Positions 36,301 to 39,300 of a stretch of 64,000 nt of DNA are shown in pieces. The first letter of the stretch is position 1; every line of letters starts with the position of its first letter. The position numbers are program-made. Source of the DNA: Escherichia coli (GTDB lineage: Bacteria > Pseudomonadota > Gammaproteobacteria > Enterobacterales > Enterobacteriaceae); assembly GCF_011045215.1 (NCBI RefSeq), contig NZ_CP049201.1; one strand, 5' to 3'.

Positions 36301-39300
36301 GTTCAACTCGAATACAATAATAATATTAACAGTAGTATCAGTTATTTCTCTGATCTCTTTAGTCATTTGGGAGTCGACCTCAGAGAACCCGATTCTTGAT
36401 CTCAGTTTGTTTAAGTCCCGTAATTTCACCATTGGTATTGTGAGTATCACATGCGCGTATTTATTTTACTCTGGAGCGATCGTCCTTATGCCGCAGTTAC
36501 TCCAGGAAACGATGGGGTATAATGCGATATGGGCCGGACTTGCTTATGCGCCCATCGGCATCATGCCACTATTAATTTCACCTTTGATAGGACGTTATGG
36601 CAACAAAATAGACATGCGGGTGTTGGTGACATTCAGTTTTTTGATGTATGCGGTTTGCTATTACTGGCGTTCTGTGACATTTATGCCAACGATTGATTTT
36701 ACAGGTATCATTTTGCCGCAGTTTTTTCAGGGATTCGCCGTTGCCTGTTTCTTTTTACCCTTAACAACGATTTCGTTTTCAGGCTTGCCAGATAATAAAT
36801 TTGCCAATGCCTCGAGTATGAGTAATTTTTTTCGTACCTTGTCAGGATCAGTTGGTACGTCGTTGACAATGACGCTGTGGGGACGACGCGAATCGTTACA
36901 CCATAGTCAGTTGACAGCAACCATCGATCAATTTAACCCCGTGTTTAATTCATCGTCACAAATTATGGATAAATACTATGGTTCGCTTTCAGGAGTTCTT
37001 AATGAAATTAATAATGAAATAACCCAGCAGTCACTTTCTATTTCTGCAAATGAGATTTTCCGTATGGCGGCTATTGCTTTTATCTTACTTACGGTTTTGG
37101 TTTGGTTTGCGAAACCGCCGTTTACAGCGAAAGGCGTTGGGTGATGGTAAAAGCAGGGGGTTATAGCGGGTAAGACCGGGGATCTTAAGTCTGCGCCATC
37201 GGCAGCATCGCTCACCCAGGGAAAGGATTGCGATGCTGCGTTGAAACGTTATTAACGGCCTTTTGCCAGATATTGCTCCATCTCTTCTTCCGGCACCATT
37301 CCACCTCCCGTCGCCCACACCAGATGAGTGGCATTACGCAGTTGTTCTGCGCTGAAACCGTGCATCTGTTGGTAACTTACTGATGCACACACGCGCTGAG
37401 GTCCGGCCATACCCGCCAGTGCCGAAGGTTCAAGACGAATACCTTCTTCCTGCGCCAGCCAGCCAAGCATGTCATACATGGTTTGATCGCTAAGGGTATA
37501 GAAGCCATCCAGCAGACGCTCCATTGCCCGCCCGACAAAGCCTGATGCGCGACCAACTGCAAGGCCATCCGCTGCGGTAAGGTTGTCGATACCAATATCC
37601 TGAACAGAAATCTGATCGTGTAATCCTGTATGGACGCCTAACAACATACAAGGGGAGTGCGTTGGTTCGGCAAAAAAGCAGTGAACATGATCGCCAAACG
37701 CCAGTTTAAGCCCGAATGCGACGCCACCAGGACCACCGCCAACACCACACGGCAGATAGACAAACAGAGGGTTATCAGCATCGACGATACGGCCTTGCTG
37801 GGCAAATTGCGCTTTAAGACGCTGGCCAGCGACGGAATACCCAAGGAACAACGTGCGGGAATTTTCGTCATCAATAAAGAAACAGTTCGGGTCAGACTGC
37901 GCTGCTTTACGTCCTTCCTCGACGGCAACACCATAATCTTGCTCATATTCCACGACCGTAACGCCATGGCTGCGCAGTTTCGCTTTTTTCCATGCCCGGG
38001 CATCAGCAGACATATGCACTGTCACCTTAAAGCCAATGCGGGCGCTCATAATGCCGATTGATAACCCCAGATTTCCGGTTGAGCCCACAGCAATGCTGTA
38101 TTGGCTAAAGAACTGTTTAAACTCCGGAGAAAGCAGTTTGCTGTAGTCATCATCAAGCGTCAGCAACCCCGCTTCCAGAGCCGGTTTTTCTGCATGTGCC
38201 AGGACTTCATAAATCCCGCCGCGTGCTTTTATGGAGCCGGAAATGGGCAAATGGCTATCTTTTTTCAGTAACAGTTGCCCGCTGATCGGTTGTTGATATT
38301 CCTTTTCCAGCCGTTTTTGCATAGCCGGAATGGCAACCAGTTCTGATTCAATAATCCCCCCAGTGGTAGCAGTTTCAGGAAATGCTTTTGCCAGATAGGG
38401 TGCAAAACGGGATAAGCGCGCATGGGCGTCCTGAACATCCTGTTCGGTCAGGCCAACATAAGGTAAACCTTCAGCCAATGAGGTCGTGCCAGGATTAAAC
38501 CAGGTGGTTTCTTTAAGAGCAACCAGATCCTTTACCAACGGATACTGGGCGATGAGCGAGTTCATTTTAGCGTTTTCCATAGTACGTCTCTTTGCGCTTA
38601 GATGATAAATGACAGCAGGAATGTGCCCGCCAGAGCGACGACTGAAGCGATAAATGTCGCTGTCGTATAGTATTTAAATGTTTCATTGAGCGTAGCGCCG
38701 CAATATTGCTTCACCAGCCAGAAAAGCGAGTCCGTAACGATCGTGCAGCCAATCGCGCCTGAACCGATAGCAATCGCAATAATTTCCGGGATGATGTCGG
38801 GATACAGCGGCAGCACAATGATCCATATTTATATTTTCTTCTCCAGGTTGGCGATGCCAGTTGGCATGTTTTACTTACTTGCCTATATGGTTACTCGTTG
38901 GCGAGAACAGAGGCGGAATTGGGGACAATTGTCCGGGAATTATTGTTATTTTTTATTGTATTGCCGTGTCAGGTGATAGGGCGTTGGATCTCGCCAGTGA
39001 CGTCTGTTTCTGCTACAGTGCCCGTTTTACGGCAAACGGCTTGGGTATGGCTTCATTAAAGGATGTCGCACGCCTGGCGGGAGTGTCGATGATGACAGTC
39101 TCCCGGGTGATGCATAATGCAGAATCTGTGCGTCCTGCAACGCGTGACCGCGTATTGCAGGCAATCCAGACCCTGAATTATGTTCCTGATCTTTCCGCCC
39201 GTAAGATGCGCGCTCAAGGACGTAAGCCGTCGACTCTCGCCGTGCTGGCGCAGGACACTGCTACCACTCCTTTCTCTGTTGATATTCTGCTTGCCATTGA

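Follow-up and report, generated by a model that had tools for sequence, protein, structure and literature searches.

D-Serine is abundant in urine and brain. The argW-cscRAKB-dsdX'-dsdA locus of Escherichia coli O157:H7 EDL933/TUV93-0, the closest described layout to the one considered here, is reportedly the subject of Jahreis et al. 2002, Moritz & Welch 2006, Connolly et al. 2015 and O'Boyle et al. 2020. In EDL933/TUV93-0, dsdC was lost and dsdX truncated through the csc locus; these bacteria do not grow on D-serine, and in M9 glucose a concentration of 1 mM inhibits them (PMC7486766; PMC4366372). With dsdC gone and dsdX cut short by csc, the EDL933 system is non-functional and D-serine is toxic, and GFP fusions carrying the native dsdA control region gave low fluorescence only (PMC7486766). 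Expression of dsdA rose 33-fold only after spontaneous deletions that removed cscR and brought cscAp or another upstream promoter near, and the authors ascribed the activation mainly to the changed context (PMC7486766).

Other systems follow the same pattern. In E. coli W (ATCC 9637) and EC3132, a non-PTS sucrose regulon is inserted in the chromosome, flanked by the argW region and dsdX, and the capacity to use D-serine was lost for the same csc reason in E. coli W (PMC3032704). Use of sucrose and use of D-serine are inversely linked through this locus (PMC11251922; PMC13054288), and in a collection of strains from Crohn's and healthy subjects, D-serine use strictly tracked the dsd configuration at argW (PMC13054288). 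Moreover, the mutually exclusive sucrose and D-serine phenotypes have been tied to pathotype and niche (PMC4366372; PMC4699771; PMC11251922; PMC13054288). Here, we describe the dsd locus in a 64-kb stretch of E. coli DNA, which is referred to below as the window. An initial annotation had called dsdA intact, dsdC absent, and dsdX reduced to a 3' stub, and had read the arrangement as a loss or deletion.

Results

The dsd region of the window and its surroundings contain the following features.

37252-38580, minus strand: dsdA, D-serine ammonia-lyase, full-length with 442 codons plus stop (ORF call, TIGR02035)
38182-38184, minus strand: codon 133 of dsdA, private substitution L133P
38365-38367, minus strand: codon 72 of dsdA, private substitution A72T
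38598-38816, minus strand: dsdX 3' stub, the last 72 codons plus stop (NF007395)
38815-38816: left junction; homology to K-12 dsdX runs up to and including 38815, and csc-island sequence begins at 38816
38816-44373: csc island, 5,558 bp, no K-12 homology in the interval (blastn)
39047-40042, plus strand: cscR, LacI-family repressor of the sucrose regulon, 331 aa (annotated cscR in O157:H7 RV06)
40050-41483, minus strand: cscA, sucrose hydrolase (invertase), 477 aa (TIGR01322, 479 bits)
41699-42613, plus strand: cscK, fructokinase, 304 aa (NF006957, 506 bits, cut-off 450)
42685-43932, plus strand: cscB, sucrose:H+ symporter (oligosaccharide MFS transporter), 415 aa (TIGR00882, 594 bits)
44012-44164, minus strand: 50-codon ORF, a DUF4942 domain protein in the annotation of relatives, a remnant between cscB and argW
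44374-44448, minus strand: argW, tRNA-Arg(CCT), right boundary of the variable island

What remains of dsdX lies 17 bases upstream of dsdA on the same strand. The 72-aa ORF corresponds to positions 374-445 of the 445-position DsdX model NF007395 and is identical to residues 374-445 of K-12 DsdX at 70 of 72 positions, in agreement with the approximately 72 C-terminal codons first described. The first codon of the stub is a GTG made by the junction, where K-12 has ATG (Met374), and an in-frame stop lies 5 codons further upstream. In relatives, the same stub is annotated by PGAP as a pseudogene, "D-serine transporter DsdX, incomplete, missing N-terminus." We note that at 38791 the stub carries a Ser-to-Ile change relative to K-12 (DISPE to DIIPE). 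Alignment to K-12, the comparison that had been proposed for finding the endpoint, maps the breakpoint to 38815, where K-12 nucleotide homology stops (alignment column 276; blastn match 38500-38815). The window, its close relative Res13 and O157:H7 RV06 are collinear across the junction, whereas K-12 diverges after alignment column 276.

The absence of dsdC is borne out within the window, as a tblastn search of the whole 64 kb with K-12 DsdC gave no match at an E value of 1e-3 or below. The same search with K-12 DsdX returned nothing beyond the stub, and a full-length DsdX (445 aa) was not found in the 64 kb. Moreover, the dsdC-dsdX intergenic region, which holds the DsdC-dependent promoter, is absent from the window when compared by blastn with the K-12 region.

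The place of the missing genes is taken by a sucrose regulon. The four csc genes are all full length without internal stops, differ from O157:H7 by 0 to 3 substitutions, and are arranged in the order cscR(+), cscA(-), cscK(+), cscB(+). Thus arranged, cscR reads away from dsdA and converges on cscA, and cscA lies upstream of dsdA on the same strand at a distance of 1.47 kb. Only 441 bp separate cscB from argW, and K-12 homology picks up again exactly at the argW 3' end, position 44374, by blastn. In K-12, the counterpart interval is occupied by dsdX codons 1-373, dsdC, and the CPS-53 prophage. A simple internal deletion of dsdC-dsdX was considered and ruled out, with 5,558 bp of foreign csc sequence in the gap and the right end at argW. 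Because csc sequence fills 38816-44373 and K-12 homology resumes at argW, the change is a replacement anchored at argW rather than a deletion. Thus, of the initial reading, the loss of dsdC and of the 5' part of dsdX stands, and the simple deletion gives way to replacement by csc. We conclude with high confidence that the locus is the csc-type allele of the variable argW-dsd region of E. coli, in which cscRAKB is found in place of dsdC and the 5' part of dsdX.

Comparison with described loci places the window nearest to O157:H7. The left junction inside dsdX, at codon 374, is identical base for base to that of O157:H7, the order and orientation dsdA(-), stub(-), cscR(+), cscA(-), cscK(+), cscB(+) is the same, and the CscR and CscB proteins are 100% identical. 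In O157:H7, 12 bp (CGTCGAGAATTT) that neither the window nor Res13 possesses are inserted in the stub-cscR interval (window 38955-38975). Additional genes also separate the DUF4942 remnant from argW in O157:H7, among them a recombinase gene next to the remnant (RV06 locus coordinates 11983-12513). E. coli W differs, by its published description, in having a lambdoid prophage at argW that the window lacks (PMC3032704). Finally, the window shares with K-12 the chromosomal position beside emrKY, and over 316 aligned bases dsdA together with the 236 bp retained upstream is 98.4% identical, with the dsdA ribosome-binding region and those 236 bp identical or nearly so in the alignment. K-12 differs in its full dsdX (445 aa), its dsdC, and its CPS-53 prophage between dsdC and argW, where the window has csc instead.

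Further differences were observed from the close relative C 236-04A. The csc/argW segment is not constant in relatives: in C 236-04A (locus coordinates 42684-45131), cscB is split by an IS5-like element, ISKpn26, and a torI prophage adjoins. Elsewhere, the window has one tRNA-Ala(GGC) gene (1014-1089; region 900-1090) where C 236-04A has two tandem copies, such that one copy and its spacer, 115 bp in all, are missing from the window, probably by recombination between the tandem copies. In addition, an ORF for a fryA/ptsP-like PEP-protein phosphotransferase (13296-15791, 831 aa) is intact in the window and annotated as frameshifted in C 236-04A.

The csc-type arrangement is common. A 501-bp query across the junction was spanned, at a coverage of at least 80%, in 49% of complete E. 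coli genomes (2,658 of 5,426, O157:H7 among them), at 92.8 to 99.8% identity, and the 7-kb block from dsdA to cscB was covered to at least 80% in 2,648 complete genomes. The K-12 segment comprising the dsdX 5' part and dsdC was present in 2,770. The two configurations are almost complementary, as 2,658 and 2,770 add to 5,428 against 5,426 genomes. We estimate that the csc junction and a full dsdCX occur together in some 52 to 82 genomes, or 2 to 3% of the 2,658 junction carriers, based on the extra places found (280 with the junction query against 198 with the dsdX-5'/dsdC query) and on the 2,770 dsdCX-positive against 2,718 non-junction genomes. As about half of complete genomes have the csc arrangement, it marks a major split in the population and not a peculiarity of one strain. 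The finding is already known and is well documented in the literature.

The DsdA protein scores 809 bits against TIGR02035 (cut-off 368) with profile positions 1-431 of 431 covered, aligns over its full length with PDB 3SS7, the structure of the E. coli enzyme, and retains the PLP-binding Lys118 and the SGSIKARGG motif. Four of the 442 residues in the window protein are changed relative to K-12 DsdA, and likewise four relative to O157:H7 DsdA, A72T and L133P among them, and these two substitutions set it apart from K-12, O157:H7, and the nearest relative alike. The nearest relative's dsdA has 4 nucleotide differences from the window, 3 of which change an amino acid. Position 72 is variable among homologues. 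The exact window protein was found as QIF12796.1/WP_164475573.1 from an assembly and also in SRA run SRR11014969, and although both may come from the same strain, we take its occurrence in an assembly and a sequencing run to mean that the allele is real and not an error peculiar to the window. The description of dsdA as intact holds for the full-length ORF (442 aa, 809 bits); as a statement about the enzyme, "intact" may overstate its condition, because the private L133P falls at a conserved helix position.

Discussion

How the csc island would silence dsdA can be read from what it displaces. The 5.6-kb cscRAKB block between the argW 3' end and codon 374 of dsdX replaces the first 373 dsdX codons, the DsdC-dependent dsdX promoter region, and dsdC itself. 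The dsdA gene retains its ribosome-binding site and, upstream, 236 bp of native DNA, but its sole D-serine-inducible promoter and the LysR activator of that promoter are gone. With both lost, dsdA should be expressed at a low, basal level that does not respond to D-serine, and we infer the silent state from published work on strains that share the junction. Some DsdA activity at a basal level probably persists in csc-type strains, as knocking out dsdA in EHEC increased the basal activity of the recA promoter, and this implies that dsdA is expressed to some extent (PMC13012123). D-Serine would still enter through other carriers, for which the EHEC literature names CycA, SstT, and YhaO. The strain is predicted to be sucrose-positive, to show no growth on D-serine, and to be inhibited by it in minimal medium. 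The initial annotation had likewise predicted poor or non-inducible dsdA expression, with D-serine sensitivity or failure to use it and a bearing on pathotype niches, and that prediction fits the experiments on same-junction strains.

The expected phenotype would change if dsdA were expressed by other means or if D-serine were handled by other genes. One candidate is another promoter, either read-through from cscA on sucrose or a reported internal promoter that lies 115 bp upstream of the dsdA start, and D-serine tolerance would then be sucrose-dependent or constitutive. The layout permits it: cscA lies upstream of dsdA on the same minus strand, the 236 bp of native sequence upstream of dsdA are kept, and the single minus-strand terminator-like site between them (38632-38613) is not new but lies inside native dsdX and is common to K-12, where dsdX and dsdA are co-transcribed. 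Moreover, deletion of cscR made EHEC tolerant of D-serine, and the effect was reversed by cscR in trans, through cscAp (PMC7486766). Wild-type EHEC with the same layout is nevertheless D-serine-sensitive, its native dsdA control region gave low reporter output (PMC7486766), and read-through from cscAp would need to cross the whole of cscR antisense. A scan of 37100-41800 for the sigma-70 consensus found 0 sites in 4.7 kb at the stringency used against 6.0 +/- 2.4 in shuffled sequence, a deficit that may reflect chance or composition and is uninformative here. We regard useful expression from another promoter as improbable. More improbable still is a further complete dsdCXA at another chromosomal site, as in many K1 strains, which would make the strain D-serine-positive. 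Genomes with two copies exist, since CE10 has two places in the dsdX-5'/dsdC search and is described as such in PMC7486766, and our genome counts imply several dozen that have both the csc junction and a full dsdCX. Such genomes are nonetheless a few percent of junction carriers, a single dsdA-containing place was seen in 24 of the 25 nearest relatives, and dsdC was not found in the 64-kb window. DsdC supplied in trans would in any case matter little for the stub-linked dsdA, because its DsdC-dependent promoter is gone.

A different alternative concerns the enzyme rather than its expression, namely that dsdA, besides being uninducible, is decaying toward a pseudogene, such that L133P impairs the enzyme and deletions that capture a promoter would not restore D-serine catabolism. 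The residue argues for it. Leucine occupies position 133 in 129 of 129 enterobacterial DsdA sequences (87 to 99% identity), and among 102 diverse family representatives (36 to 61% identity) the position is Leu in 48, Ile in 24, and Val in 18, or an aliphatic residue of these three kinds in 90, and Pro in none. A 61-mer containing the Pro133 codon had no exact match in 5,049 matched complete E. coli genomes, all of which matched at 98.4% or less. In a structure model built from an alignment of 84 diverse sequences (pLDDT 96.9), residue 133 lies inside a helix, 118-136, that begins at the PLP-binding Lys118; an earlier model from a shallow 20-sequence alignment was poor (pLDDT 53) and was dropped. 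That three of the four nucleotide differences from the nearest relative alter the protein points in the same direction. On the other side, the ORF is full length and keeps Lys118, and residue 133 is three positions short of the helix C-terminus, a place that tolerates proline better. We consider decay of the enzyme a tentative and somewhat doubtful addition to the csc-type reading, yet clearly a likelier one than either a hidden promoter or a second dsdCXA copy.

Were L133P to impair DsdA, the known escape to D-serine tolerance, fusion of dsdA to the cscA promoter by deletion, would be closed in this lineage, and the stranded dsdA would offer a minor natural case of selection being relaxed once a gene is severed from its regulator. 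The csc-type replacement brings no new biology, because the junction is shared by about half of complete genomes and the mechanism has already been dissected experimentally. Whether a strain carries csc or dsdCXA at argW is recognised as a marker of metabolism and niche in E. coli, and recognition of the csc-type allele here allows the confident prediction that the strain would be sucrose-positive and D-serine-negative or D-serine-sensitive.
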